In this document: positions 3,485-26,631 of the stretch, in pieces | How the letters are laid out: the number at the start of each line of letters is the position of its first letter | How positions within the stretch are numbered: position 1 is the stretch's first letter | Made by a program: the position numbers and the translations under genes | NCBI GenBank assembly: GCA_963716045.1 | Contig: CAVQSS010000025.1 | Coordinates: 772 to 64,771 of the forward strand | From: an uncultured delta proteobacterium | GTDB lineage: Bacteria; Desulfobacterota; RBG-13-43-22 | Length of the DNA stretch: 64,000 bases | Direction: 5' to 3' | Notes under the pieces: generated by a model | Seen by the model: only the letters and a program-made list of their open reading frames with translations | Told to the model about the DNA's origin: nothing | Databases searched by the model: none

Positions 3485-4717
3485 ATGAAACGGCTCAGAA
3501 GCGCTCTTGCGATACTTTTCATTCTCTCCTGGTTTTCCGCTTCGGGGTGTGATTGGATGGGGCCGGGAACCGCCCCGACCGAAGCCGTTCCCGGCGTCAG
3601 CGACCAGACCCTGCTTATCGGGTCTTCCATGGCACTGGGAGGCCACGCCAGCTACCTGGGCAAGCAAACCCTGCACGGCGCCCTTTCCTTTATCAATCAA
3701 GTCAACAATGAAGGAGGCATCCACGGCCGAAAAATCAAATTGATCGCCTATGATGACGGCTACGATCCGCAGGTCTGCGTCGCCAATACCCAGCGGTTGA
3801 TCATCCATGACAAGGTCTTCGCCCTTTTTTGCTATGTGGGGACACCCACTACGGTAAAGATTTTGCCCATCCTGGAACAGGCGAAGATCCCCCTGGTGGG
3901 GGTCTTCTCGGGGGCCAACGCCTTGCGGGAACCACTTAACCGGTACATCCTAAACATCCGGGCCTCGTATTACCAGGAAACAAAGAATGCCGTGAAAAAC
4001 CTGGTCGAGGACTTGGGCCTGAAAAAAGTGGCGGTTTTTTATCAATACGACGCCTACGGGTTCGATGGGTTGAAAGGGACAGAACTGGCCCTCAAGGACT
4101 TCGGTTTGACGCCCGTAGCCCGCGGGACCTATACCCGGGGGACCCTGAATGTCGAAGACGGGCTGGGTAAAATCAAAAATTCCGACGCGGAAGCCGTGGT
4201 CATGATCGGGACCTACGAACCCTGCGCCAAATTCATCCGGCTGGCCAAATCCCAGGGTTACCAGCCTATCTTTTATAATGTATCCTTTGTGGGAGCCGAT
4301 GAACTGGCCCGCCGACTGGGGGAAGAAGGGGAAGGCGTGATCGTCAGTCAGGTCGTCCCTTCGCCGGAACCGCCTCAAAACCAGGCGCCGTTAAAAGGGG
4401 TCAAGGATTATGCGGAACTCCACAAAAAGTTTTTCCCCGAGGACAGCCCGAATGTGATTGGCCTGGAGGGGTTTATCAATGCCCGGGTTTTGGTGGAAGG
4501 CTTACTCCGCGCGGGGAAGAATCTCGATCGGGAAAAATTTATTGACGCGCTGGAAACCGTCCGGAATTTTTCCGTGGGCATAGACCAGGAAATCAATTTC
4601 AGCCCGCAGGATCATCAAGGTCTGAAGGCGGTTTATTTTTCCCGGATCCACCGGTTTCGATTCGTCCCTCTCTCGGACTGGAAGGAAATAGGGCGGGTTC
4701 GGGGTGGTCGTTCATAG
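3485..4717 (+). CDS. Periplasmic substrate-binding protein, Leu/Ile/Val-binding (type I PBP) family
   Basis: In-frame ATG at 3485 gives MKRLRSALAILFILSWFSASGC (signal peptide, possible lipobox). LLIGSSMALGGHASYLGKQ...GGIHGRKIKLIAYDDGYDP is typical of LivK-like binding proteins. The ORF-track start at 3335 is rejected. Confidence 0.8.
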   Translation: MKRLRSALAILFILSWFSASGCDWMGPGTAPTEAVPGVSDQTLLIGSSMALGGHASYLGKQTLHGALSFINQVNNEGGIHGRKIKLIAYDDGYDPQVCVANTQRLIIHDKVFALFCYVGTPTTVKILPILEQAKIPLVGVFSGANALREPLNRYILNIRASYYQETKNAVKNLVEDLGLKKVAVFYQYDAYGFDGLKGTELALKDFGLTPVARGTYTRGTLNVEDGLGKIKNSDAEAVVMIGTYEPCAKFIRLAKSQGYQPIFYNVSFVGADELARRLGEEGEGVIVSQVVPSPEPPQNQAPLKGVKDYAELHKKFFPEDSPNVIGLEGFINARVLVEGLLRAGKNLDREKFIDALETVRNFSVGIDQEINFSPQDHQGLKAVYFSRIHRFRFVPLSDWKEIGRVRGGRS

Positions 4718-4749
4718 CCTTAGGCCCGGATTCAAAGCCCGGAGGACCT

Positions 4750-6612
4750 TTGGAACGTTTTAGAAGCCTCAGTTTTAAGAACAAGATACTCTTCTTGACC
4801 ATCGCGGTCATTTTGCTGCTGAGTTTCAGCATCCTGGTGGCCACCCGTTTTATCCTGATCCCGGCGCTCACCGATGAATTGAAGCGGCGGGGAATCGCGA
4901 TCGCCCAGAGCCTGGCCGACCTGGGCAAGAGCTATATCCTCCATGAGGACACCACCAACCTGACGGGGTTGGTCTTTGACACGGCGCTCTTGGGCGAGCG
5001 GCGGCAGTTGGTAGCCTATATTTTTATTTCGGATACCGCCAGCAAGGTGCTGGCCCACAGCTTCATCACCGATTTCCCCGCACAACTGAACGGGATCAAT
5101 CCGGTTAAACCCAATCAGAGCCACGCTATCAGGCAAGTGGATATCCAAGGATACACGTCGTATGACATCGCCGTCCCGATCATGGAGGGCATTTATCAAA
5201 TCGGCACGGCCCATGTGGGTTTGAACAAGAAGCACATCGATCACCTGGTGGATCAGCTTCGGAATGCCTATCTGGGGATCACCTTCGCCATTATTCTGTT
5301 GTTTTTCCTGATCAGTCACTGGCTGTCCCGCTATATCACCCGGCCTATTTCCCAGTTGATCCAGGTCTCAGACGATATCAGCCGCGGGAATTTCAATATC
5401 GAGCCGGCCTTGGCCAAGGTGGTCTATAAAGAGGGGGGCCGTGATGAAATCGTTCAATTGGCCAGCTCCATCAACCACATGGCCGAAAACCTCCAGGTCT
5501 CGCAGAAACAGTTGCGGGAATCCGAGGGGAAATACCGGTCCCTGTTCGATAGCGGACCGAATCCGATTTTTGTCCTGGATGCCGAAACCCAGGAGATCCT
5601 GGACGCCAACCCCAGCGCGGTGGACACCTACGGGTATACCAAGGAAGAATTAAAACAACGTACCTTTACCGAATTGGGCGGGCTGGACAGCGGGGAGACT
5701 TCGTCCTCGATGCTCAATAAGCAGTGCTCCGGGACCGATCATATTGTCATTTCCAACGTGAAACATTTAAAAAAAGGGAACCGGGCCTTCCACGTGAACA
5801 TCCACGGCTGTTCCACGAAATATAAAGAACGCGACGCCCTGATCGTGGCCACGACGGATATTACCGAAATCGTCGAGAAAGAGGCCCAACTGATCCAGGC
5901 CAGCAAGCTGACCACGTTGGGACAGATGTCGGCCGGCATCGCTCACGAACTCAATCAACCCCTGAATGCCATTAAGGTAGGCAACGAGTTCCTAAAGATG
6001 ATGACCCAGGAGGGCCGAGCGATTCCCCAGGAGGACCTGCTTCAGGTGGTCAACGAGGTCAGCAACCAGGTGGACCGAGCCGCCGAGATCATCAATCATC
6101 TGCGGGATTTCAGCCGCAAAGCCGATCAGGTCAAGGAAAAGGTGGACGTCAACCGGTCCATCAAAACGGTCAACAGCCTGTTAAGCCAGCAACTCCATCT
6201 GGAAAACATCGGTCTGGATCTGGAGCTCGACAAGCAGACCCCGCTGATCAGAGCCCAGGCCAACCGGTTCGAGCAGGTCCTTTTCAATTTGGTGACCAAC
6301 GCCCGGGACGCCATCAGTCAAAAGAAGGAAGAGGGAGACAGTCGATCCCGCGGGAACATCCGCATCCGCACCAGCCAGGAAAAGGACCGGGTGATCATCG
6401 AGGTTTCCGATGGCGGGATCGGGATGCCGCCCACGGTGAGGGAACAGATCTTTGAACCTTTTTTTACGACCAAGGAAACCGGGAAAGGCACCGGCCTGGG
6501 GTTGTCTATTGTCTATGGGATCGTCAAGGATTACAATGGCGAGATCGAAGTGGTCAGCCAGGAAGGGGCGGGCACCACCTTCCGATTGTCTTTTCCCGCG
6601 ATAACCACCTGA
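4750..6612 (+). CDS. Sensor histidine kinase (TM - periplasmic domain - TM - HAMP - PAS - HisKA - HATPase_c)
   Basis: TTG start 4 nt after GGAGGA. Two hydrophobic helices. H-box [16 protein letters not shown]-boxes DGGIGMP and GTGLGLSIV. Confidence 0.9.
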
Positions 6613-15350: not shown

Positions 15351-16160
15351 GTGTTCAAGGATTTGATCGGAGATCTTTCGGAAATAAGATTATTCAACCT
15401 GGTAAAAAACCTGGTGGACGGAAAAAAGTCCGGACTGATGGCGGTCAAGGGTAAAGAGGCGGCGGAGTTATATCTTGAGGGGGGCCAGATCGTCCACGCC
15501 CGGACCGACACCCTGAACGGAGAAGAAGCGATCCGGCCCATTATGGACCTGGACAACGGACGGGTCACCTTCAATTGGCGGACGTCGCCCGAGGAACGCA
15601 CGGTGCGCCTGCCCACCGAGCAGATCATGTTGAATTGGTCCCAACGGGAGGAGGAGTGGAAGAGGATCAGGCAAACGGTGCCTTCCGCCGAGTGCGTCTT
15701 CCGCCTGGTGGTAGATAGCGGCGGCGAAGACCGGATGATTCCGGCCGGACAATGGGGCGTGCTGGCCCTGTGCAACGGGAGGCGAACCGTCTCCGAAATG
15801 GCCGGTCGGCTCGAGCGACCCGTATTGGATGTTTCGGGCACCCTCTGCGCTCTGGTGGAAAGAAGTCTGGTCGAAAGAACAGCGGCCGCCGATATTCCCC
15901 CAGCGGAGCTGAGGACCACGGTTGACGAGGCTTTTTTCGAGGCCGCCGAGACGGAACTCAAGAAGGTGGTGGGACCCATCGCTCGGATCATCCTGAACGA
16001 TACCCTGGCGGCATTTGAGGAATCCCGGGAGGCCTTCCCGAAGGATCGGGTGAAGAGTTTCATTTCCACGGTCTGCGACCAGATCGCGGAGGAGCCGAAA
16101 CGGGAAAAGTTCGGCAAGGCCATTTATGTCGCCTGGCTTTCTTCCTTTGAAACCAGTTAA
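15351..16160 (+). CDS. DUF4388 (PatA-N-like) domain protein
   Basis: GTG 15351 gives MFKDLIGDLSEIRLFNLVKNLVDGKKSGLMAVKG...LYLEGGQIVHA...GEEAI, the DUF4388 pattern. The ORF-track TTG start at 15300 is also possible. Confidence 0.7.
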   Translation: MFKDLIGDLSEIRLFNLVKNLVDGKKSGLMAVKGKEAAELYLEGGQIVHARTDTLNGEEAIRPIMDLDNGRVTFNWRTSPEERTVRLPTEQIMLNWSQREEEWKRIRQTVPSAECVFRLVVDSGGEDRMIPAGQWGVLALCNGRRTVSEMAGRLERPVLDVSGTLCALVERSLVERTAAADIPPAELRTTVDEAFFEAAETELKKVVGPIARIILNDTLAAFEESREAFPKDRVKSFISTVCDQIAEEPKREKFGKAIYVAWLSSFETS

Positions 16161-16185
16161 GCACTCAAAACCAGGAGGATCGATC

Positions 16186-17190
16186 ATGACGGAAATATCG
16201 AAGGGCGAGGGGGGCATTCCGGACCAAATCATGGGACCATTCAGACAGCGGATCGACCGGTTAGGGTTAAAGGGGACCCTGCTGCTGGGGATCTTCGTCC
16301 CCATTCTGATCGCCTTCCTGGTCATCTCAGTTCTGCTTTTCGTCGATGTGGGCCCGTTGGTCAGCATCCGGGCCCTCGGGTCCAACAGTCTGAAGGAACT
16401 GGGCGCCGCCAGTATCAAAGAATCCGTCGCTTCCCTCAACAAGCTGGGAGAGAAGATCATTCAGGAAAAAGCCGAGGGGGTGGCCCGCCAGATTGACATC
16501 TATCTCGAATCCCATCCGGGCCTGCCGGAGGCGGCCCTGGCCAACCAGACGCGCCTCCAGGAGATCGCCATCCAGCGGGTCGGTGAAACCGGCTATACGG
16601 CGGTTCACAACAATAGAGGGATCAACTATTTTCACGTCAACCCGAAAATCGTGGGAACCGACCTGCATAAGCTGGCCGGTAAAATGCCGGAATTCGTCAA
16701 GGTCATGGAAACGGGACTGAAAGGGGCTTCGGGCGGCTATTACCAATGGACGGACATCGATGGAAAGGTGCGGCCCAAGTACATGTTCAGCGCCCCGGTG
16801 GAAGGCACAAATCTGATCGTGGCCGCCACGACCTACATAGATGAATTCGGAAAACCGGCCGGCGCCATCCTGGCCAAGGTGGACCGGATGCAGGCCGCGT
16901 ACGCAGAGCGGTACAGAAACCGGTTCCTGATTTTCCTGGCCATCGTTCTGATCGACCTGGCCGTGCTGCTGGTGGTCATCTACGTCTTTTCGTCTTCCCT
17001 GGTCCGGCCGATCCGCCGCTTATCGGAGGCGGCCGATCGGATCAGTATGGGGGACCTGGAGGCGACCGTGAACGTGGAGGGGGAAGGAGAGGTCGCCCGG
17101 TTGGGACAGTCGATCGAGCGGATGCGGACCAGCGTTAAAACCGCCCTGGAGCGGCTGGAGAACCGACGACCGATAACCATTCGCAAATAA
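16186..17190 (+). CDS. Membrane sensor with Cache-like extracytoplasmic domain and a HAMP domain but no output domain
   Basis: ATG 16186 after AGGAGGA. TM1, a ~250-aa periplasmic region (YTAVHNNRGINYFH...YYQWTDIDGKVRPKYMF), then TM2. HAMP LVRPIRRLSEAADRISMGDLEATV. The protein ends ~40 aa later. Confidence 0.7.
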   Translation: MTEISKGEGGIPDQIMGPFRQRIDRLGLKGTLLLGIFVPILIAFLVISVLLFVDVGPLVSIRALGSNSLKELGAASIKESVASLNKLGEKIIQEKAEGVARQIDIYLESHPGLPEAALANQTRLQEIAIQRVGETGYTAVHNNRGINYFHVNPKIVGTDLHKLAGKMPEFVKVMETGLKGASGGYYQWTDIDGKVRPKYMFSAPVEGTNLIVAATTYIDEFGKPAGAILAKVDRMQAAYAERYRNRFLIFLAIVLIDLAVLLVVIYVFSSSLVRPIRRLSEAADRISMGDLEATVNVEGEGEVARLGQSIERMRTSVKTALERLENRRPITIRK

Positions 17191-17203
17191 AAGGAGGAAG
17201 GTT

Positions 17204-17818
17204 ATGAAAGGGCGTAACGGGCCGAAGTGGGCACTCCCCTTACTCGGGCTGACAGTCTTCCTGTTCTGTTTCTGTTTCGATGAACTGGTTTTCGGTCAGG
17301 GAAACCCCAAAGCCGCACAGGATACCCGGCCGGACCTTCCGTCCGACACGGATCAGCCACCGGCCATACCGGTGGGTGCCCTGACGATCCTCCGAACCGG
17401 GAACGGACGGGGGAAGGTGACAACCAGTCCCGCCGGGCCCTTCTTTAAGAAAGGGACGCTGGTGACCCTGTTAGCGCTTCCCGCCCCGAATTCCGTATTC
17501 GAGGGCTGGAGCGGAAACTGCACAGGATTCTCCCGCACCTGTACGGTCATCCTGTCAACCGAACGGACTGTCACCGCCAACTTTTCCCTGAAAACCTACA
17601 CGATCCAAGTCCGCCCCTCGATTAACGGGGTCATTTATCCATACGGGAATATAAAAGCAGGTCACGGGGAGAAGCGAAGGTTCCAGATTATCCCCCTGCC
17701 CGGCTACCGGGTTTCCGAGGTCCTCGTGGACAAGGTGGCGCAGGGGCCCATAAACTCCTATACTTTCAAGGAGGTCACGACCGACCATGTCCTGGAAGCG
17801 ATTTTTATAAAACAATAG
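17204..17818 (+). CDS. Secreted protein with divergent InlB B-repeat type domains
   Basis: Signal peptide present. GRGKVTTSPAG..FKKGTLVTLLALPAPNSVFEGWSGNCTG..RTCTVILSTERTVTANF, followed by a second repeat-like unit. Confidence 0.65.
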   Translation: MKGRNGPKWALPLLGLTVFLFCFCFDELVFGQGNPKAAQDTRPDLPSDTDQPPAIPVGALTILRTGNGRGKVTTSPAGPFFKKGTLVTLLALPAPNSVFEGWSGNCTGFSRTCTVILSTERTVTANFSLKTYTIQVRPSINGVIYPYGNIKAGHGEKRRFQIIPLPGYRVSEVLVDKVAQGPINSYTFKEVTTDHVLEAIFIKQ

Positions 17819-18057: not shown

Positions 18058-19195
18058 AACTAAGTTTTTTGGCCAGCCTCTTGGCCATGGCCACCACGGT
18101 AACCGACGGAGGCAGTCCCCAGGGTTCTGGTATGACCGTGGTGTCCATGCAATAGCAATTCTCTATCGGCGTCGACAGTTTCCGTCCAGGAGGCTGCCGA
18201 TCCGCACCGTCCCGCCGGGATGGGCGGCTATGGTGGTAGTCTTGAATAGTTTTTTCCGGTTAACCCCGGCCTTGACCAGGATTTCTTCGGCCAGGGCCGC
18301 CCCTTGGTCCAGTTTCTTTCGGGTTTCGGAATCGATGGGCTTGGAAAAGGAACCGTCGGGATTGATTTGACCGTCCAGACCGTCCCGCACCTTGATCATG
18401 ATGATCAGCGTCTTGTTGATTCCCGCCACCCTCGGGAGGGAAGCGATTCCTTTCGCGCCTGCGTGGGCCAAAAAACCGGCCAGGATGGTGGGCGAAAGGG
18501 TGAAGTCGGTCATCACGATCCCTTCTTCTTCCAGGTGAGCGCCGGCCGTCATGGGAATGTCGTGAATGGAACCCGGGATATTCGGAGGGTCCGCCGACAA
18601 ACCACAAGGGATCCGCAAAAAATCCTTGTCCGGCTTTATCCAGGCCGGCCCGCTGCAGGATGAAGCGGGTTGGCTTTCCCTCCGCCAGATAAAACAACTG
18701 TCTGGGCATGTATGTTCAACCGCCCTACAGAAGATTCGGCTTCGACCCCCACCGCCTTCCCGCCATCGACCAGCAGGCGGGTTACCCGGGTGTTGGTCAA
18801 TAGCTCCGCCCCCTGTTTCCGGGCCTCTTCCACAAATTCCCGCGCGGTCCACTTGGCCCCTTCCACAGGGCACCCCAGGGAGCACTTGCCGCAATTCGGC
18901 CGGCACTTTTCCGGACGAATCCATTTGTCCAGGGGTTTCCAGTCCAAGCCGGTTGCCACGGCGCCTTCCATTATTTTACGGGCGGCCGTCCCGATCAAAC
19001 GGTCCGGCAGGGGCTGAATGGGGATCTCCCTGAAAATTTCCTCAACTTCCTCGGTCAAGTCGATCCCGTATTTTTCTTTCAACCAGAGGGGAGGCTTAAA
19101 AGCCGTACCGCAGAAGACGACCGATGCTCCCCCCACAGTCTTGGGATGAAAGACCCAGGTGCCTTCTTGAGAAAAGGTGCAGTTTTTTTCATAAA
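18058..19195 (-). pseudogene. GMC-type FAD oxidoreductase pseudogene (5'-truncated, at least 3 frameshifts)
   Basis: Homologous segments lie in three frames:
- GGASVVFCGTAF...CGKCSLGCP...AQTVVLSGGG
- KPTRFILQRAGLDKAGQGFFADPLWFV
- HPGGTVRIGSLLDGNC
- IENCYCMDTTVIPEPWGLPPSVTVVAMAKRLAKKLS*
The N-terminal FAD-binding GxGxxG region is absent. Confidence 0.75.
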
Positions 19196-19450
19196 AATCC
19201 CCTTTAGGTTATTCTAATTAAGGCGATTTCTTGGTCAGCCTGCTGAAATCCCCCCTATATGATTCTGAATAGATCAGGGATTCAGATTTTCCAGGCTTAG
19301 GCGGTAAACCACACCTCCAATACCGCCGTCCTCCAAGCCTGGATCGAGGCAGCGGACATGACGGAAAGGGTGTGAAGTTCTCGATGCTACACGAAATACC
19401 ATGCCAGGGGCGGGCACCCTTGAAGCTTGAAAATCCACTTGGCCAAGTGA

Positions 19451-19515
19451 CTGTCATCTCAAGCGTTTCGTCAGCCTGTCATTCTGAGTGAAACGAAGAA
19501 TCTCGTCCTTCAAGG
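19451..19515. repeat. Family-2 repeat units (GTCAYYCTGAG core)
   Basis: CTGTCATCTCAAGCGTTTCGTCAGC followed by CTGTCATTCTGAGTGAAACGAAGAATCTCGTCCTTCAAGG. Related to the elements at 55131, 58469 and 60188. Confidence 0.7.
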
Positions 19516-19774
19516 AACCTGTTGTCGGTCCCTGACCGTTTTTTCTATTTTGGGAGGGTGGATTAAAAAGGGTTAACCGGCCGACATGGGTCCTTAGACG
19601 CCTGGGTGAAACTTTATTCCAGAAGGAGCGGGAGGAGGAGGTTACTTTCTCAGTTCACGGGACGGGATTAAAATGTTTTTATGTCTTCTATCAAAAATCT
19701 ATTAATAAGTCAAGATAAATTTACACAGGAAAGACATTTTATCCTACAGATTGGGGTTGGCCTGAACGATCCGA

Positions 19775-19862
19775 TCACCGGGGAGTCACGGGCAGGTGCA
19801 GCAGGTAGGCGGTGGGATGTGGGATGGTTTGAGGGTTACTGAAAAGTTCCTGTGATCGGGGG
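19775..19862 (-). pseudogene. Orphan remnant of a secreted-protein C-terminus carrying the AYLLHLPV..R* tail
   Basis: Encodes PRSQELFSNPQTIPHPTAYLLHLPVTPR*. About 80% nt identity over ~45 nt to the 3' end of the beta-helix gene (24335-24380). Lies in the same frame immediately after the TGA stop of gene 19863-20054. Confidence 0.55.
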
Positions 19863-20054
19863 TCAGCGCTGTTCCGCCAAGGAATTGTTCGCCGAAACGG
19901 AACTTCTGATCAATTCGATCTTCCGGGGTAAAAAGGACTTGATATCCTCCCTGGTCTTCTCATAACAGGGGCGACAGATCCCATGGGAGATCTTATCCTC
20001 TCCGGGAACCCGGCTGATCTCCCGATTGCACCAGGAACATATTACGATAAACAT
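19863..20054 (-). CDS. Small zinc-ribbon-like protein (CxxC...CxxC)
   Basis: 63 aa. MFIVICSWCNREISRVPGEDKISHGICRPCYEKT. Confidence 0.5.
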   Translation of the reverse strand: MFIVICSWCNREISRVPGEDKISHGICRPCYEKTREDIKSFLPRKIELIRSSVSANNSLAEQR

Positions 20055-20332: not shown

Positions 20333-23300
20333 TCAGTGGGCGCGGGGCTGTCGGTAGTACCACTGGAGTTGTCCGGGGCTGCTGTCTTCGTCCACGTTTT
20401 CCTGGTCAACAGTCTTCTTTCCCCGGCCCGGAGGCAGAACCTCTTTCAGTTTCCACTGCCCGTCCAGGCGGCCGAAGGTCCAGTATTCTTCGAAGGGCGT
20501 GACGTATTCCTGTTCACTCAGGGCCTGATCGCCTTTGCGGATGAAACGCTGGGCATGAGCGCTGATCCGCACCGTAAATTCATCCCGGGTGCTGTCCCCG
20601 AAGTTGCGGACCAGGAGCAGTTCCACCTTACGAACGCAGAGGTTGCGGTATTCCACGCGGACGCCCTCACTCTTCCAGTAATTCACCTGGGTTTTCAGAT
20701 CCTCGGCCACCTTTGGGAAAAGCTCGGCGGCGGCGACCCGGGCCGGATCGCCGGTTTCGCGGGCCAGGTAAATATCGAGGAAAACTTGACGAGCCCTTTC
20801 AAGCATCCCGTTTCGATTCCAGAGTTTGTCGGTCTGAGACAAGAAGTTTATCATTCGGTCGATGCGGGTGGCTTTCTGTTCCACCTCTTTTTCCAGCCAG
20901 GGACCCGCCTTCCCTTGGGGGACAGCCTCTTCTCCATAAATACCTTTCAGCGTTTCGTCGGTCAGCATCTCGGCAAAGTTCTCATCCTTAAGGATATCCG
21001 ATTCTCCGGCCTGCTCGATCTCCCGGAGCAGCCAGCGTCCGTTCATCATCTGAAAGGTCCAGAACTCTTGAAAAGGGGCCGGGGTCTGATCCCCCCGAAG
21101 GAATTTTCCCGAGCGGTCGTCCTGATAGTAATCCCGAGCCGAGGCGGTGATTAGGGCGGTGAACTCCCTTTGATCCGCCTTCTCCGCGTAGCGGACATTC
21201 ACCAGGTCGATCCCTGCCACCTTCAGGTCGTCGATTCGGTTGATCTCGTGGTTCCGGGCCAGCCCCTGGAGCTGGGCCGTGTGCTGGGTAAAAAGGTCCG
21301 GCAGCAGTAGTGCCCCCATGGGTCCGTATTCGCGCTTTCCCCAACACTCCTGCAGCTTGAGAAACGTGGCTTCAGCCAGATGGCGCAGCGTTTCCGGGGA
21401 GACGGTGGAGTCCTGCCGGCTCAGGAAAGCCAGCAGTTTTTCGGTCTTCTCCGCCTTGGGGGTGATTTGATTGCGCGGGTAGACGAAATCGAGGTTTTCA
21501 CCTTTCTTCTTGGATATCGAGAATTTGATGGCATGAATTATAATTGGCAATAGGATCATAAAAAAAATAAGAGCAAAACAGAACAGAAAAAATCCCGTCC
21601 AAGTGAGATCTTGGCCGCTGCCCCCGGAGGATGAGCTGGACCCCGAGCTGCGGGACCCGCCCCCCCCTTTGTTATGAGTCACAAACCCGGCGGCCAGAAA
21701 CGTATTCGGCCAGCCGACGGACAGATTGAAGACCGGCTGCGGACGCTCCTCCCAGCGGGTTCTGAGTACCGTGGCCGCCTGGAGGGCGTCGTTTTTCCAG
21801 ACGAGGACCTGCTGTCCGGGATACAGCCTCCCGGCGGGAACGAAGGCTCCGTCGGGGCAACCCACCGGATGATCCACCGTGGCCCGCAGGAGTCCGGCAT
21901 CGGTTTCAACGGTCCGAACTAAAGCCCGCGTGCTGAAGATTTTCGCTATCCGGGTAAATACCATCTTTCCCTGGGGATCTACGGCCTGCACGTGACTCGC
22001 TTTAGAAAGTCGCTCGATGGGGATCAGGCCCTGAAGAGTGCCGATCGGGGTCCCGGACGGCAGGCAGCCGCCCCCCTTGTTGTGGACCACCACGCCTTCG
22101 GCGATGAAAGTATGGGGACCGGCAACCTCGAGATTGAAGACGAGTCCTTCCTTAGGGCCGGAATCCACCCCCCGAACTTTTTGGGCGACCAATCGGCCTT
22201 CTTTCCAGCGGGTGATCCGGTCTCCCGGACGGAGATCCCCGGCCGGGCGGAAACGCCCTTCTCCCAGGCTTATGGGGTGGTCTTCGGTGGCCGGGAGGGA
22301 ACCCCCGGGGGTCTTTATTATCAGCAGGGGGCTTTTATTTATCAGGATGGTTTTCACCAGGCTTCGCACCGTACGCCCTTCCGGGTCAATGGAGAGGACT
22401 TCGTCTCCGGCAGCCAGCGCTTCGATGGGCCGCCGTCCTTTTGGAGTGGCAATCCCGGTTCCGGCCGGGAAGCATCCCCCGCCCTTATTATGGACGGCCA
22501 GGCCGCCGGCGAAAAAGGTATGGGGTTGATCGGTCTGGAGATTATAAACCTGGACCCGTTCCCGGACCCGCTCCAGGGAGACGATCCGCTGTTCAGCCAG
22601 CCACTTCCCGTCAAAAGCCAGAATGGTGTCGCCCGGGGTGAGGGCTTCGACCGTCTTGAAAGTCCCCCGGCCGACATAGAAAGGATGCTCCGCGGTCACC
22701 CGCAGGGTGACCCGATCGGTTCTCATCAGGAAATATTCGTCCGCCTGGAGGCGAAGCACGGACAGGGTGCGGGTGGGTACCAGGTGTCCATCGGGTTTGA
22801 AGGCCCAAAGGGCATCACCCGGCTTCACGGCACTGATGCGCGTTTCCGTGCCGTCCGCTCTAAGGATGGGGCTGTCGGGCAGGAAACAGCCCTTGTTGTG
22901 CAGGACCAGATCCCCGGAGATAAAGGTCCCTCCCGGGCTGACCAAAAGATTGTAAGCCGGGCGCTTTCCCTGAAAACGATGAATCGATTGGACCGCCTCG
23001 GCCTTTAGCGCTCCGGCGCTGAACAGGAAAACCCGGTCCCCCGGAAAAAGGAAACCGGCCTGACGATAGGTTCCGGGGGCCACCATGATCGGATGTTCGG
23101 GGGTAACCCGCACCCGGGTTCCCCCCGCGGATAGCTCCAGGTATTCTTCGGGGACCACCCGGACAACCGCCCGGACTTTCGCTTCCCGGAGTCGGCCGGA
23201 AGCTACAGTCCAGACCGGGTCGTCCACCCCCAGCCTTTCAATGGCCACCGGACCTTTCAGGGTCCTAATCGGAGTGCCCTCTTCCAGGCAGCCGCCCCCG

Positions 23301-23371
23301 CCCCGGGCCCAGGAAAGAGCCGGGCTGAGCAACAGGAGAAACAACCCCGCCAGTCCGATAAGCCGGTTCAT
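20333..23371 (-). CDS. Signal peptide + four tandem Hint (Hedgehog/intein-type) domains + TM helix + two Tim44-like domains
   Basis: 1012 aa.
- Hint modules: nt 22895-23290, 22487-22888, 22079-22474 and 21671-22066.
- Each module starts G-C-(L/F), has T-x-x-H-P (TPEHP/TAEHP/TEDHP/TVDHP) and ends (L/V/T)HN.
- Linkers are K-G(1-3).
- TM helix WTGFFLFCFALIFFMILLPIIIHAI at 21527-21601.
- The C-terminal ~380 aa has two units ending ...F.E.WTF.....W.L.E (Tim44/NTF2-like pattern). Confidence 0.85.
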   Translation of the reverse strand: MNRLIGLAGLFLLLLSPALSWARGGGGCLEEGTPIRTLKGPVAIERLGVDDPVWTVASGRLREAKVRAVVRVVPEEYLELSAGGTRVRVTPEHPIMVAPGTYRQAGFLFPGDRVFLFSAGALKAEAVQSIHRFQGKRPAYNLLVSPGGTFISGDLVLHNKGCFLPDSPILRADGTETRISAVKPGDALWAFKPDGHLVPTRTLSVLRLQADEYFLMRTDRVTLRVTAEHPFYVGRGTFKTVEALTPGDTILAFDGKWLAEQRIVSLERVRERVQVYNLQTDQPHTFFAGGLAVHNKGGGCFPAGTGIATPKGRRPIEALAAGDEVLSIDPEGRTVRSLVKTILINKSPLLIIKTPGGSLPATEDHPISLGEGRFRPAGDLRPGDRITRWKEGRLVAQKVRGVDSGPKEGLVFNLEVAGPHTFIAEGVVVHNKGGGCLPSGTPIGTLQGLIPIERLSKASHVQAVDPQGKMVFTRIAKIFSTRALVRTVETDAGLLRATVDHPVGCPDGAFVPAGRLYPGQQVLVWKNDALQAATVLRTRWEERPQPVFNLSVGWPNTFLAAGFVTHNKGGGGSRSSGSSSSSGGSGQDLTWTGFFLFCFALIFFMILLPIIIHAIKFSISKKKGENLDFVYPRNQITPKAEKTEKLLAFLSRQDSTVSPETLRHLAEATFLKLQECWGKREYGPMGALLLPDLFTQHTAQLQGLARNHEINRIDDLKVAGIDLVNVRYAEKADQREFTALITASARDYYQDDRSGKFLRGDQTPAPFQEFWTFQMMNGRWLLREIEQAGESDILKDENFAEMLTDETLKGIYGEEAVPQGKAGPWLEKEVEQKATRIDRMINFLSQTDKLWNRNGMLERARQVFLDIYLARETGDPARVAAAELFPKVAEDLKTQVNYWKSEGVRVEYRNLCVRKVELLLVRNFGDSTRDEFTVRISAHAQRFIRKGDQALSEQEYVTPFEEYWTFGRLDGQWKLKEVLPPGRGKKTVDQENVDEDSSPGQLQWYYRQPRAH

Positions 23372-23402: not shown

Positions 23403-23672
23403 TCAATGCAAGGCGGCCAGGATCCCGCCCAGTACCGCGGCGGCGATGACGATACTCACCCCCAGGATGGCCGAGCCCACGATACGCCCATAGTATTCCC
23501 CCACCGCGCCATTGCCGCGGACAATTTCCTTCTGTTCGTCGATGTTGGGGGTCAGTCGATCGATGAGCCCCGGGAGAATCAGCGAGGAGGCGATCACCAG
23601 CGCCATCCCGATCACGCCCCCGATTACTGAAAAAACCATTGACCAGCCGATATTCTGCAGCGTTTCAACCAT
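23403..23672 (-). CDS. DUF350 family small membrane protein
   Basis: 89 aa, 3 hydrophobic helices. IVRGNGAVGEYYGRIVGSAILGVSIVIAAAV resembles the DUF350 motif. Confidence 0.65.
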   Translation of the reverse strand: MVETLQNIGWSMVFSVIGGVIGMALVIASSLILPGLIDRLTPNIDEQKEIVRGNGAVGEYYGRIVGSAILGVSIVIAAAVLGGILAALH

Positions 23673-23748: not shown

Positions 23749-24303
23749 TTAAAACTTCCCTTGAGGAACCACGCGTTCCGCGGCGGCTTCCACCTGAAAA
23801 AAAGGCTCGGCCTGAAAACCGAAAATACTGGCCACGATATTGCTTGGGAACATCTCCACCCGGTTCTTGTAGCGCATGGCGGCGTCGTTATAGTACTGCC
23901 GGGAAAAGCCGATTTTGTTCTCGGTGTTGGAAAGCTCCTCCTGCAGGGCCAGGAAGTTCTGATTGGCCTTGAGGTCCGGGTAGGCCTCGGCCACGGCAAA
24001 AAGGGAACGCAGGGCCGAGGTCAAGACATTTTCGACCTCGGCCCGTTGCGCCACCCCGCCGGTGAAGTCGACGGCCTGCTGCCGGGCCTGGACCACCGCC
24101 TCCAGGGTCTGTCTTTCGTGGCCCGCGTAGCCCTTTACCGTTTCAATCAAGTTGGGGATCAGGTCATAACGCCGCTTGAGCTGGACGTCGATCGAACTCC
24201 AGGCGCTCTTGACCTCGTTCCTTCCCCGGACCAGCGCGTTGTAAGGAGCGATCACCAGGAAACCCAGGACAACCAACAATACCAGGATAACGATAAGAGA
24301 CAT
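23749..24303 (-). CDS. LemA family protein
   Basis: N-terminal TM. YNALVRGRNEVKSAWSSIDVQLKRRYDLIPNLIETVKGYAGHERQTLEAVVQAR is the LemA signature. Confidence 0.9.
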   Translation of the reverse strand: MSLIVILVLLVVLGFLVIAPYNALVRGRNEVKSAWSSIDVQLKRRYDLIPNLIETVKGYAGHERQTLEAVVQARQQAVDFTGGVAQRAEVENVLTSALRSLFAVAEAYPDLKANQNFLALQEELSNTENKIGFSRQYYNDAAMRYKNRVEMFPSNIVASIFGFQAEPFFQVEAAAERVVPQGKF

Positions 24304-24334: not shown

Positions 24335-26494
24335 TTATCGGAGAATCACGGGCAGATGGAGCAGGTAGGCGGTGGAAGTGAAAACCGCCGAAAATTCCGA
24401 CGTGCCCCGGGCATCGGAGGAGGTGGCCGTCAGGTAGGGGTAAGCCAGGCCGCTTATCTCCAAAACATAATTTCCGGCAGCGTCGGCCACGGTGCCCCCC
24501 ACATAGACTTCCCCTTCCCCGTCGGGGACCCGGCTGTTGAAGATCTGCACCGCGCAGCCGTAGCAGGCCTTCCCTGAAATACGGATGGAACCGAAGGTGG
24601 TGCTTTGGATGACCGGGGCCGGGATGCCGCTGTTGGCCCCGTTGGTCAGGTGGATGCCCAGGCCGCTGTTGGCGTAGATGCGGTTGCGGGTGATCAGGTT
24701 GCCGGTGGCGTTCGGGGTGTCCACCTGCACGCCGTCTCCGCCGTTGAAGGCGATGATGTTGTTGGGGCCGACGAAATTCGATTGGGCCACTGGGCCGAAA
24801 TAGATTCCGTCATCCAGGTTGCCCAAGGGATTCAGCCCCAGATGATCCGTTCCGATATAATTCCCTTTGATCGTGTAAAACCGGCAGATATCGGGCCCGC
24901 CCTCCAGCCATATCCCAACAAATTGATTCCCCGATATAAGGTTGGCCGTACCGGGTGCGTCCCCCCCAATCAGGTTGTTGGCAGCCCGCGGGCCTAGAAA
25001 GAGGCCCGTCTGGTTGCCCACGGCTGTCTTTCCGCCGGCATCGGTCCCGATGTAGTTTCCGGAGATGACGTTATTGGTGACGTCCGCGCCGGTTCCCCAG
25101 ATTATAATGCCTTGGAGGAGATTGCCGGATATGATATTCCTGTGGGCCGGCAGGGCGCCCCCAATGGTGTTGTGGCTGCTGCTGATGTCGATTCCTCTCT
25201 GGTTGGGCAGGGGCGTTACCCCGTCGGCTGCCAGGCCGATGGTATTTCCCCGGATGGTGTTGGTATCGGCAGCGAGGGTGATTCCGACCTGATTTCCAGA
25301 AATGATATTGCCTGACCCCGGGCTGTCCCCTCCGATTACATTGTCGCCGCCGGGCGCCTCCAGGAAAATTCCTGTGTTATGTCCCCGGGCCTCCCGACCT
25401 TCAGGATCTGTGCCGATATAATTGCCGGAAATGAAATTGGAATTGGCTCCATTTGAAATAATACCGATGACGCTATTGCCGGATATTATGTTTCTTTCCC
25501 CCGGGGTCCCCCCTCCAATTACGTTGTGATTGGCCCCGTCCAGGAGGTAAATACCGACATCCTGATTCCCCACGCCTCCCAATCCGGAACCGGTCAGGCC
25601 GATAAAATTCCCCTGGATCAAATTCCTGCTGGTCTCGACCCCCTCCAGGAGAATGCCCAATTGTCCATTTCCCGAGATGAGGTTCCGCTCCGCTTCGGTA
25701 CCACCGCCGATCCTGCTGTGCTGCGCGCCGCCGAAAATGTGAATGCCGTGATTCGTGTTAGCGAGGGAGACCCCGCCGCCGGCATTGACGCCGATATAGT
25801 TCCCGGAAACGGTGTTCGTATCCGTACCGGTTCCGTCGATGCGAATTCCCGACTGGTTGTTCCCGGAAATGATGTTCCTATCGGCGGGGCTCTTCCCGCC
25901 GATAACATTTGCCGAGGCTCCTGAAGCAATGGAAATTCCATTACCACCGTTACCCAGATCGGCATTGCCGGTGGAATCCGTTCCAATGTAATTGCCGGAA
26001 ATGATATTGCCGGTGGCTCCGGCCCCGGTAATGATAATCCCGTGCAGAGCAAAATTGTTGATGATCAGTCCTTTGATCGTATTCCCGGAAGAGGTTATAT
26101 TTAACCCGACACTAACGCCTGCACTAGACCCGTTTATCCTGACCCGCAGCACGGCCGGGGAACCTGCCGTAGCCGGCGAGGCCCCGCTTTGGGTATAGCC
26201 GTCTATGGTGGTGCCGTTGTCTGTTAACGCCGGAAGGGAAGAAGTAGGGGTTATAGTTTTTATAAATAAGGGATCGGGGATATTGAACGTAATCGTATCG
26301 GGTCCGGGGTTATCATTGGCATTGATGATGGCTTGCCGGAGGGAACCTGCCCCGCTGTTGAGGAGGGTTGTTACCACGTAATTAGCCGACCAGGCGTTTG
26401 GGCAATAAGACAGGAAAGAGAAGATTAGACCAGAAAACAGGAAAAACCCAAACGAAGAAGATCGTTCTGCAGCAGAATTTCGGAACCGAAACAT
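24335..26494 (-). CDS. Secreted right-handed parallel beta-helix repeat protein (PbH1/NosD-like)
   Basis: ATG 26494 after GGAGG. Signal peptide present. N-terminal NSGAGSLRQAIINANDNPGPDTITFNI. More than 15 repeats of the ISGNYIGTD..G....GN..GI type. C-terminal ...TSEFSAVFTSTAYLLHLPVILR*. Confidence 0.85.
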   Translation of the reverse strand: MFRFRNSAAERSSSFGFFLFSGLIFSFLSYCPNAWSANYVVTTLLNSGAGSLRQAIINANDNPGPDTITFNIPDPLFIKTITPTSSLPALTDNGTTIDGYTQSGASPATAGSPAVLRVRINGSSAGVSVGLNITSSGNTIKGLIINNFALHGIIITGAGATGNIISGNYIGTDSTGNADLGNGGNGISIASGASANVIGGKSPADRNIISGNNQSGIRIDGTGTDTNTVSGNYIGVNAGGGVSLANTNHGIHIFGGAQHSRIGGGTEAERNLISGNGQLGILLEGVETSRNLIQGNFIGLTGSGLGGVGNQDVGIYLLDGANHNVIGGGTPGERNIISGNSVIGIISNGANSNFISGNYIGTDPEGREARGHNTGIFLEAPGGDNVIGGDSPGSGNIISGNQVGITLAADTNTIRGNTIGLAADGVTPLPNQRGIDISSSHNTIGGALPAHRNIISGNLLQGIIIWGTGADVTNNVISGNYIGTDAGGKTAVGNQTGLFLGPRAANNLIGGDAPGTANLISGNQFVGIWLEGGPDICRFYTIKGNYIGTDHLGLNPLGNLDDGIYFGPVAQSNFVGPNNIIAFNGGDGVQVDTPNATGNLITRNRIYANSGLGIHLTNGANSGIPAPVIQSTTFGSIRISGKACYGCAVQIFNSRVPDGEGEVYVGGTVADAAGNYVLEISGLAYPYLTATSSDARGTSEFSAVFTSTAYLLHLPVILR

Positions 26495-26631
26495 ACGCAC
26501 CTCCGGGAAAAGATGGCTGTTAATCCGCAATAAAACCTCAAAGCAAAGCTTTTTCAGGGAAGGATGGGTGAAATCATATCAGGAAAGGGGATTTTAGGTC
26601 AAAGGTTTCCTTTGATTGCGGCAGTGTCGGA

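Follow-up and report, generated by a model that had tools for sequence, protein, structure and literature searches.

A head-to-tail array of four bacterial intein-like Hint modules in an exported, membrane-anchored protein with Tim44-like domains from an uncultured deltaproteobacterium

The stretch of DNA analysed here (the window; 64,000 nucleotides, positions 772 to 64,771 of contig CAVQSS010000025.1, assembly GCA_963716045.1) comes from an uncultured delta proteobacterium of the Desulfobacterota lineage RBG-13-43-22. On its reverse strand it carries a gene for a protein of 1012 amino acids, in which a signal peptide is followed by four Hint (Hedgehog/intein-type) modules arranged head to tail, a Ser/Gly-rich tail, one transmembrane helix and two Tim44-like domains, and upstream of which lie genes for a DUF350-like membrane protein and a LemA family protein (Table 1). 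An earlier note, made from the letters alone, had described four contiguous modules with their motifs, K-G(1-3) junctions, a Ser/Gly linker, a transmembrane helix and two Tim44-like domains, and translation of the open reading frame (ORF) confirmed all of these. The modules fit bacterial intein-like (BIL) domains best, and we propose that they may be excised after export.

Table 1. Features of the Hint-Tim44 gene and its upstream neighbours, with positions in the window
Feature	Position	Strand	Basis
Whole ORF, 1012 aa: signal peptide, four Hint modules, Ser/Gly tail, transmembrane helix, two Tim44-like domains	20333..23371	-	ORF, Pfam, NCBIfam, AlphaFold2
Sec-type signal peptide, residues 1-22, predicted cut after S-W-A	23306..23371	-	read from sequence
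N-flank R-G-G-G-G, residues 23-27	23291..23305	-	unchanged in all 61 aligned homologues
Hint/BIL module 1 (q1), residues 28-159, Cys28 to His158-Asn159	22895..23290	-	
Junction Lys160-Gly161	22889..22894	-	
Hint/BIL module 2 (q2), residues 162-295, most conserved module	22487..22888	-	
Junction Lys296-Gly-Gly-Gly299	22475..22486	-	
Hint/BIL module 3 (q3), residues 300-431	22079..22474	-	
Junction Lys432-Gly-Gly-Gly435	22067..22078	-	
Hint/BIL module 4 (q4), residues 436-567	21671..22066	-	
Lys568, then Gly/Ser-rich low-complexity tail (KGGGGSRSSGSSSSSGGSGQDLT)	21602..21670	-	pLDDT <50 for 569-589, disordered in model
Transmembrane helix, residues ~591-619, then KFSISKKK	21515..21601	-	sequence and AlphaFold2 model
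Tim44-like (NTF2-like) domain 1, residues ~633-790	21002..21475	-	PF04280 best stretch 650-787, model, Foldseek vs yeast Tim44 3qk9
Tim44-like domain 2, residues ~828-980	20432..20890	-	second Pfam Tim44 stretch; NCBIfam Tim44_TimA_adap 827-975 below cutoff; model
DUF350-like small membrane protein, 89 aa, directly upstream	23403..23672	-	Pfam DUF350 4.1e-05, below gathering score
LemA family gene	23749..24303	-	Pfam LemA 7.4e-59

The N-terminus (MNRLIGLAGLFLLLLSPALSWA|RGGGGC) shows the n/h/c layout of a signal peptide, positions -3 and -1 being taken up by small residues; the cleavage site was judged by eye from the sequence. Counted with their linkers the modules take up residues 28-161, 162-299, 300-435 and 436-567 (132-138 amino acids), while the cores without linkers measure 132-134 amino acids. 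They open with RGGGG-CLE, HNKG-CFL, HNKGGG-CFP and HNKGGG-CLP, each includes the motif T-x-x-H-P (TPEHP, TAEHP, TEDHP and TVDHP), all four terminate in ..[YF]NL..TF..G..HN, and the linkers between them are KG, KGGG and KGGG. After module 4 the chain runs through KGGGGSRSSGSSSSSGGSG and a hydrophobic helix to KFSISKKK and a long C-terminal half; since this basic stretch follows the helix, the positive-inside rule places the C-terminus in the cytoplasm. A lipoprotein reading of Cys28 was rejected: the three residues in front of it are G-G-G and Leu is absent from position -3, a signal-peptidase I site (A-x-A|R) comes earlier, and Hint-less relatives have no Cys there.

The Hint assignment is borne out by two of the checks that the earlier note had suggested, namely profile searches and structure prediction. 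Over the whole protein, Pfam returned PT-HINT (E value 5.9e-21), Hint_2 (3e-18), Hint (1.5e-17), Intein_splicing (2e-16) and Vint (5.8e-10), with PF07591, PF13403, PF01079, PF14890 and PF14623 all above the gathering score, and the NCBIfam models of the N- and C-terminal intein splicing regions also scored above cutoff. An AlphaFold2 model built with 61 homologues (mean predicted local distance difference test, pLDDT, 77; about 75-88 in the modules) consists of four beta-rich modules, a disordered segment (569-589), a helix (591-619) and two alpha+beta domains. Tim44-like domains are indeed fused to the array: PF04280 matches two stretches (E value 3.2e-22; 79.7 bits against a gathering cutoff of 29.6), and in a Foldseek search with the model yeast Tim44 (PDB: 3qk9) matched the C-terminal half at an E value of 3e-5.

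A-type BIL domains reportedly go back to work by Amitai et al. in 2003 and Dassa et al. in 2004, and the structure of a BIL domain of C. thermocellum (PDB: 2LWY) is said to have been solved by Aranko et al. in 2013. When a profile built from 41 diverse modules of the family was searched against the PDB sequences, its best match was this C. thermocellum domain (E value 2.6e-26, 96 bits), followed in second place by BIL2 of the Tetrahymena thermophila BUBL1 locus (9e-17), then by mini-inteins (1.4e-15 for the best) and, much more weakly, by Hedgehog (about 2e-6 to 6e-6). By Foldseek the top matches were BUBL BIL2 (6y75/6tmm; E value 3e-9), then mini-inteins, 2lwy and Hedgehog (1at0); 115 PDB entries matched at E<=0.001, and nearly all of the top 50 listed are BILs, inteins or Hedgehog, with template-modelling scores to the target of 0.75-0.87. 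Tested singly, 34 of the 41 modules matched PT-HINT and 33 matched Hint_2. The modules contain intein blocks A, B, F and G, and neither a homing endonuclease nor a Cys, Ser or Thr at +1. In having Cys1 as the N-terminal nucleophile, T-x-x-H in block B, blocks F and G ending in His-Asn, no nucleophile at +1 and a site in a variable, non-conserved exported region, they resemble A-type BIL domains as these have been reviewed (PMC7765530, PMC5874633, PMC7664689). They appear to fit that class, nearness being judged by proxy from the PDB profile match, and are not canonical inteins, Hog domains or pre-toxin Hints. Unlike A-type BILs, however, the modules of this family form head-to-tail arrays of one to six with only K-G(1-6) between them, Gly-1, Lys+1 and Gly+2 are essentially invariant, and the protein that hosts them is membrane-bound, Tim44-like and partnered by DUF350-like and LemA proteins.

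The closest published arrangement of several BIL domains in one polypeptide is BUBL, whose BIL2 is reported to ligate its N-flank to a Lys epsilon-amine by an isopeptide bond (PMC8616854), which matches the idea of Lys+1 as an acceptor in the present family. In BUBL, which is eukaryotic and cytosolic, the BIL domains alternate with folded ubiquitin-like cargo and the acceptor Lys lies inside the downstream ubiquitin-like domain, whereas the family described here is bacterial and exported, its inter-module segments are K-G(1-6) only, with no ubiquitin-like cargo domains, and its acceptor would be the +1 residue itself. Class 1 mini-inteins (e.g., Npu/Ssp DnaB, Mtu RecA, gp41-1) share the fold (template-modelling score to target 0.8-0.87), blocks A, B, F and G, a length of about 130-140 amino acids and the lack of a homing endonuclease. 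The modules differ from them in their tandem copies, their export and a site that is not a conserved position in a housekeeping enzyme but a disordered, Gly-rich tail (pLDDT <50); the +1 residue is Lys at all four junctions and family-wide. For this last reason class 1 intein splicing is excluded. The earlier note had likewise held classical splicing to be unlikely. That there is no splicing at all does not follow from Lys+1, because BILs are reported to cleave at both termini and in some cases to join their flanks although +1 has no nucleophilic side chain (PMC7664689, PMC5874633), and because BUBL BIL2 is reported to ligate to a Lys epsilon-amine.

With the Hog domain of Hedgehog the modules have in common the Gly-Cys-Phe tripeptide, the Hint fold and action in an exported protein. 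They have no sterol-recognition or adaptor region and no folded N-terminal cargo (only RGGGG precedes the first of them), they end in His-Asn, and the next module or the Ser/Gly tail begins within 2-7 residues. PT-HINT domains of polymorphic toxins (Zhang et al. 2012, PMC3482391) are the best single Pfam match (PF07591, 5.9e-21) and also belong to secreted bacterial proteins; a PT-HINT is single and sits just upstream of a C-terminally placed toxin domain that it releases, and an immunity gene lies downstream, whereas here the downstream part is a transmembrane helix with two Tim44 domains and there is neither a toxin nor, in 80 loci, any conserved downstream gene, whether of the immunity type or another. 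The C-terminal half itself resembles bacterial Tim44-like or TimA-type adaptors in its PF04280 domains behind a transmembrane helix, but the NCBIfam TimA model reaches only 33.9 of the required 80 bits, and the present family has two Tim44-like domains and adds an exported Gly-rich tail with Hint modules.

Conservation was assessed in 693 unique full-length modules that were detected with a hidden Markov model and then inspected residue by residue. Gly-1 is present in 691 of them, and Cys1 and the pair Lys-Gly at +1/+2 are present in 692 each. Thr and His of block B are kept, with rare exceptions, in about 100%, and the terminal His-Asn is invariant. Cys1 is the sole cysteine in 556 of the 693. 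One block-F position, which is Asp in inteins, is Asn in 95% of the modules. The single module with Ser in place of Cys1 (AHNKG-SFLPETS..) belongs to a distant representative and is otherwise intact; Ser is a known alternative nucleophile at position 1 of inteins. The first module always follows R-G-G-G-G or R-A-G-G-G, which comes straight after an A/S/V-x-A/G signal-peptidase-type site, and among loci whose N-terminus is intact nearly all show the pattern A/S/V-x-A/G|RGGGGC. In the window protein the catalytic set for thioester formation and Asn cyclisation is complete in all modules, so that as far as residues go the description as Hint autoprocessing modules appears to be sound.

The four modules of the window protein share 25-39% amino-acid identity with one another. 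The sole direct DNA repeat with the periodicity of the modules is a 38-nt stretch at the module ends (63-74% identical, period 408 nt), so that the earlier note was right to see similarity at the protein level only. Direct repeats of 20-38 nt occur at the module boundaries (window 21652-23303, spacing 408-411 nt or 819 nt) and correspond to the HNKG motif and to the runs of Gly codons that flank every module; they are plausible substrates for unequal crossing-over and could mediate both duplication and clean loss of modules. In the family the module order q1-q2-q3-q4 is kept as a positional orthology. Among 47 orthologues with four modules, mean pairwise identity is 57% for q1, 69.6% for q2, 58% for q3 and 61% for q4, compared with 74% and 71% for the two Tim44-like domains and 21% for the transmembrane helix, which together with the tail is the least conserved part of the protein. 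The pace of evolution of the modules is thus nearly as slow as that of the cytoplasmic domains, in agreement with the proposal that the array is old and maintained.

Homologue searches with the full protein gave 898 clusters and with the Tim44 half 634 clusters, while an exhaustive search with the transmembrane and Tim44 part (residues 600-1012) returned 1110 representatives at 50% identity. In a scan of one genome per species, relatives were found in 307 species genomes from at least eight phyla; the groups include Syntrophales, Desulfarculales, Desulfobacterales, Geobacteraceae, Planctomycetota, Verrucomicrobiota and Lentisphaerae, as well as Kiritimatiellota, Nitrospirota, Auribacterota, Terriglobia, Anaerolineales and Legionella. 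The window protein is 75% identical to homologues in metagenome-assembled genomes (MAGs) labelled 'Deltaproteobacteria', and the database names of its relatives are generic ('Hint domain-containing', 'TIM44-like domain-containing', 'polymorphic toxin-type HINT domain-containing'). The survey of copy number that the earlier note had recommended gave one (n=12), two (68), three (37), four (69), five (1) or six (2) modules in N-terminally complete homologues. Single-module relatives carry a q2-type module in 12 of 13 cases, and the six-module proteins read (q1-q2)x3. In some arrays, including those of relatives P0277 and P0070 (L005 6001-9861), some modules are 92-100% identical to each other, and P0276 and P0277 have nearly identical Tim44 halves, yet one of the pair has two modules and the other five. 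Hence copy number is still changing, or repeats have sometimes been collapsed or expanded in metagenome assembly.

The family is also represented in a cultured organism, Legionella massiliensis LegA (L075, NZ_CCVW01000002.1 823218-833800, match 4001-6583), where the protein has three modules and 42% identity and the gene has a DUF350-like gene upstream and no LemA. In two MAG contigs (L006 4991-7221; L007 4676-7233) the gene is broken within the Ser/Gly linker, one ORF encoding the Hint array and another the transmembrane-Tim44 part; either the low-complexity run has led to a frameshift error, or this two-gene version could be genuine. The earlier note knew of no four-module array fused to Tim44-like domains. 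Such an array is not unique to the window, as it belongs to a large unnamed family with one to six modules; the claim of novelty stands in so far as literature searches found no paper on a Hint and Tim44 combination and none on tandem Hint or BIL arrays in bacteria, the primary BIL work being known via reviews only. The arrangement is a new, uncharacterised variant in which BIL domains stand head to tail without cargo, have an invariant Lys-Gly as their C-flank and belong to a membrane-protein family that is widespread but unnamed.

Genuine absence of Hint modules is confined to a few distant relatives. Six N-terminally complete proteins (P0303, P0304, P0320, P0330, P0365 and P0371) have a signal peptide, A|RGG.., a tail rich in Gly, Ser, Tyr and Arg, a transmembrane helix and Tim44, and no Hint module; the tail of P0365 reads '..SLA|RGGGGSGGSRSGGGGYSGSSG..' and that of P0330 '..TYA|RGGGGGGTGGGGGGGFGGGYSG..'. 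From the same part of the tree, single-module relatives read '..AWA|RAGGGGGGGG[Hint]KGGFGGGRSYRS..', and in the filled P0331, to be compared with the empty P0330, the stretch is RAGGGGGGGG[Hint]KGGFGGGRSY... In a rough neighbour-joining tree of the Tim44 half, the Hint-less forms are scattered among Hint-bearing ones. Over at least eight phyla the Hint-bearing forms predominate by far. Immediately upstream of P0365 is a homologous DUF350-like gene (41% identity, E value 7e-22), and P0330 has no such neighbour. Because these relatives have the signal peptide, RGGGG and the Gly-rich tail in the same place, the modules can be assigned to one fixed point, immediately behind RGGGG in a disordered tail that is exported. 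Judged from these relatives they look like removable inserts and not like parts of a cargo-bearing polyprotein. The computed flank-joined product of the window protein is RGGGG-KG-KGGG-KGGG-KGGGGSRSSGSS.., and removal of the modules with joining of the flanks would recreate what the Hint-less relatives encode directly.

Two further sets of apparent Hint-less relatives were discarded. Matches of 400-550 amino acids that seemed to be close 'Tim44-only' orthologues turned out to be truncated gene calls or to come from genes broken within the Ser/Gly linker, with the Hint modules in the upstream ORF, and a Hint-less subfamily around P0330 did not materialise, as its nearest relatives (about 29-43% identical) nearly all have Hint, the Tim44-only matches inspected were truncated and P0330 stands isolated. 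There is also a distant subfamily of about 290 amino acids with one Tim44-like domain (P0355, P0356, P0368, P0373, P0376, P0377, P0380, P0383, P0385 and P0386), in which the signal peptide is followed by A-Q-A-G-R-[YFL]-[IV]-P, a Gly/Pro/His-rich tail and a transmembrane helix, i.e., a different conserved exported tail.

Among the neighbouring genes, the DUF350-like one is found upstream at 72 of 87 loci, most of the exceptions being truncated contigs, and a LemA gene is found upstream at 46 of the 87, mainly in deltaproteobacterial/Desulfobacterota-type MAGs. The LemA protein of the window also matches the NCBIfam model of the magnetosome protein MamQ (E value 2.1e-22), although its 79.7 bits are far below the 250-bit cutoff; a named magnetosome protein thus counts among the LemA family. 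All-against-all clustering of the flanking ORFs in 80 loci recovered, apart from shadow ORFs, LemA and the small ORF upstream only, with no protease, sortase or immunity gene as a conserved neighbour. PADLOC reported no defence-system protein, only weak intein-motif matches to homing-endonuclease models being noted, and a scan for operon promoters and terminators gave nothing informative. Downstream of the Hint-Tim44 gene (18163-20054) the ORFs have no family matches apart from a fragment of a GMC oxidoreductase: in the region 18163-19136 (reverse strand) a 166-aa ORF (18636-19136) matches positions 67-194 of the 218 of PF00732 only, several out-of-frame ORFs overlap it, and an adjoining 253-aa ORF has no family match; the region resembles a GMC/FAD oxidoreductase gene that has been frameshifted or has decayed. 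The gene directly upstream of LemA (24335-26530, reverse strand) encodes 731 amino acids with right-handed beta-helix repeats (PF13229) and an N-terminus that is hydrophobic; it is not kept beside the system in the other loci inspected. Further away (16126-17818, forward strand) lie genes for a 354-aa Cache and HAMP membrane sensor with no recognisable output domain and, after it, a 204-aa exported protein with an InlB B-repeat (Flg_new_2).

Based on this analysis and by analogy with characterised BIL domains, we lean, by a modest degree, towards a reading in which the modules would be excised after export by Cys1 thioester formation and Asn cyclisation, the amine of Lys+1 would rejoin the flanks, and the processing itself would be under selection. 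The protein would be a bitopic inner-membrane protein acting with the small DUF350-like membrane protein and often with LemA. With the topology taken from the signal peptide and the positive-inside rule, the Sec signal peptide would export the N-terminal half, the transmembrane helix would anchor the protein and both Tim44-like domains would stay in the cytoplasm. In each exported and folded module the Gly(-1)-Cys1 peptide bond would be converted to a thioester, and cyclisation of the terminal Asn would cut the Asn|Lys bond and excise the module. The upstream thioester would then be resolved by an amine of Lys+1, either the alpha-amine freed by Asn cyclisation, as in BILs, or the epsilon-amine, as in BUBL BIL2. 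The flanks of two to five residues (RGGGG / KG / KGGG / KGGG / KGGGGS...) would probably be re-joined via the Lys amine, or else trimmed if water wins. The products would be a mature membrane protein (about 51-52 kDa) whose periplasmic tail is short, rich in Lys and Gly and similar to the tail of Hint-less relatives, and four free periplasmic Hint domains; the computed masses are 109.9 kDa for the precursor, 52.2 kDa for the ligated product (RGGGGKGKGGGKGGGKGGGGSR..), 51.0 kDa for the trimmed product (KGGGGSR..) and 14.0-15.1 kDa for the Hint fragments. Processing itself appears to be the selected function, because the chemistry is essentially invariant and because Hint-bearing forms dominate although a disordered tail should tolerate an inert insert. 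One may speculate that it serves the membrane system as a one-shot maturation or sensing step, or as a redox- or metal-sensitive switch.

A more elaborate form of this proposal, which we regard as rather doubtful, would make Lys+1 the built-in nucleophile of a serial, amine-resolved splicing in the periplasm that leaves a tail of isopeptide-linked Lys/Gly units. In it, each module would hand its N-flank on to the following Lys, possibly via the epsilon-amine as in BUBL BIL2. Since Cys1 thioester chemistry is sensitive to oxidants and metals, such an array could act as a one-shot redox or metal 'fuse', to be read by the transmembrane-Tim44 protein with DUF350 and LemA.

Several observations weigh against processing with rejoining as the whole account. 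The predicted template modelling score of the AlphaFold2 model is only 0.35, and the geometry between modules is not fixed by it. True N-terminally complete Hint-less relatives are rare, and the array could equally be ancestral and occasionally lost. Where an extein has only two residues (KG), the active Hint domains on either side may be a steric obstacle to ligation. Finally, the retention of one to six copies and module surfaces nearly as conserved as the Tim44 domains point to a role beyond self-removal. This last point leads to what we consider a possible, though unlikely, alternative, namely that the thioesters are simply hydrolysed without rejoining, the Tim44 protein is a mere carrier, and the freed 14-15 kDa domains (or the array) are the product and, e.g., bind an envelope component. 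BILs have been reported to yield mostly N- and C-cleaved products (PMC7664689), the surfaces are well conserved (q2, at 69.6%, comes close to the Tim44 domains), and a copy number of one to six with recent duplications of 92-100% identity would look as if the dosage of a released unit mattered. Yet if the flanks were discarded, it would be hard to explain why Lys+1/Gly+2 is kept in 692 of 693 modules and R-G-G-G-G in all 61 aligned homologues, and family-profile searches found no known ligand-binding feature in the modules.

A further idea, which we consider improbable, is that the modules are selfish or neutral inserts resembling mini-inteins without a homing endonuclease, multiplied by unequal crossing-over of Gly-codon runs and kept because an unspliced module would harm the host protein. 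Presence/absence polymorphism at one site in a homologous host family, evident tandem duplications, the short direct DNA repeats at the module boundaries and the lack of a conserved neighbour beyond LemA and the DUF350-like gene are what such elements would leave behind. A disordered tail, however, should tolerate an inert domain, yet the catalytic residues are essentially invariant; Hint-bearing forms dominate across at least eight phyla; and positional orthology with near-host conservation indicates long vertical co-evolution. The earlier note had also suggested that upstream pieces might be handed covalently to an envelope nucleophile. In such a Hedgehog-like transfer the Gly-Cys thioester would be attacked by, e.g., a lipid head-group amine or hydroxyl or a peptidoglycan amine. 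This is weak, and we hold it to be very improbable: although the G-C-F/L tripeptide resembles the Hedgehog cleavage site, the array is exported and Hedgehog Hint structures are among the significant fold matches, it is weakened most by the absence of any cargo, as the N-flank comprises five residues (RGGGG) and 2-4 residues separate the modules. Nor is there an adaptor or a region resembling the sterol-recognition one, given that each module ends at His-Asn and the next starts within 2-7 residues; the Hedgehog profile match is about 2e-6 to 6e-6 compared with 2.6e-26 for the BIL; and the terminal His-Asn, which Hog domains are not known to have, is invariant in the modules. It is hardly credible, lastly, that the Hint folds remain unprocessed as a periplasmic beads-on-a-string spacer that only sets the reach of the tail. 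A variable copy number would tune its length, and the modules are predicted to be compact, independent and joined by short Gly linkers, but structural repeats do not need Cys1, block-B Thr and His, His-Asn, Gly-1 and Lys+1 to be conserved at 99.7-100%.

To our knowledge, what BIL domains do in nature has not been settled in the roughly two decades since they were described, and the majority of the known examples occur singly in hypervariable secreted proteins. The family described here offers a conserved and vertically inherited case in 307 species genomes and thus a clean test case for the purpose of bacterial BILs: because only Lys-Gly(n) stands between the autoprocessing domains, the chemistry itself, or the released Hint domains, must be the point. 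The near-invariant Lys at +1 links bacterial BILs to the Lys-directed ligation of the ciliate BUBL. Modules of 132-134 amino acids that follow one another head to tail with linkers as short as two residues, and that maybe ligate onto an amine, would interest protein engineers. The family also gives a first handle on an uncharacterised membrane module that brings together a DUF350-like and a Tim44-like protein and often includes LemA. If the serial, Lys-resolved splicing were true, it would be the first cargo-less multi-step Hint cascade and would provide the first natural role for bacterial BILs.

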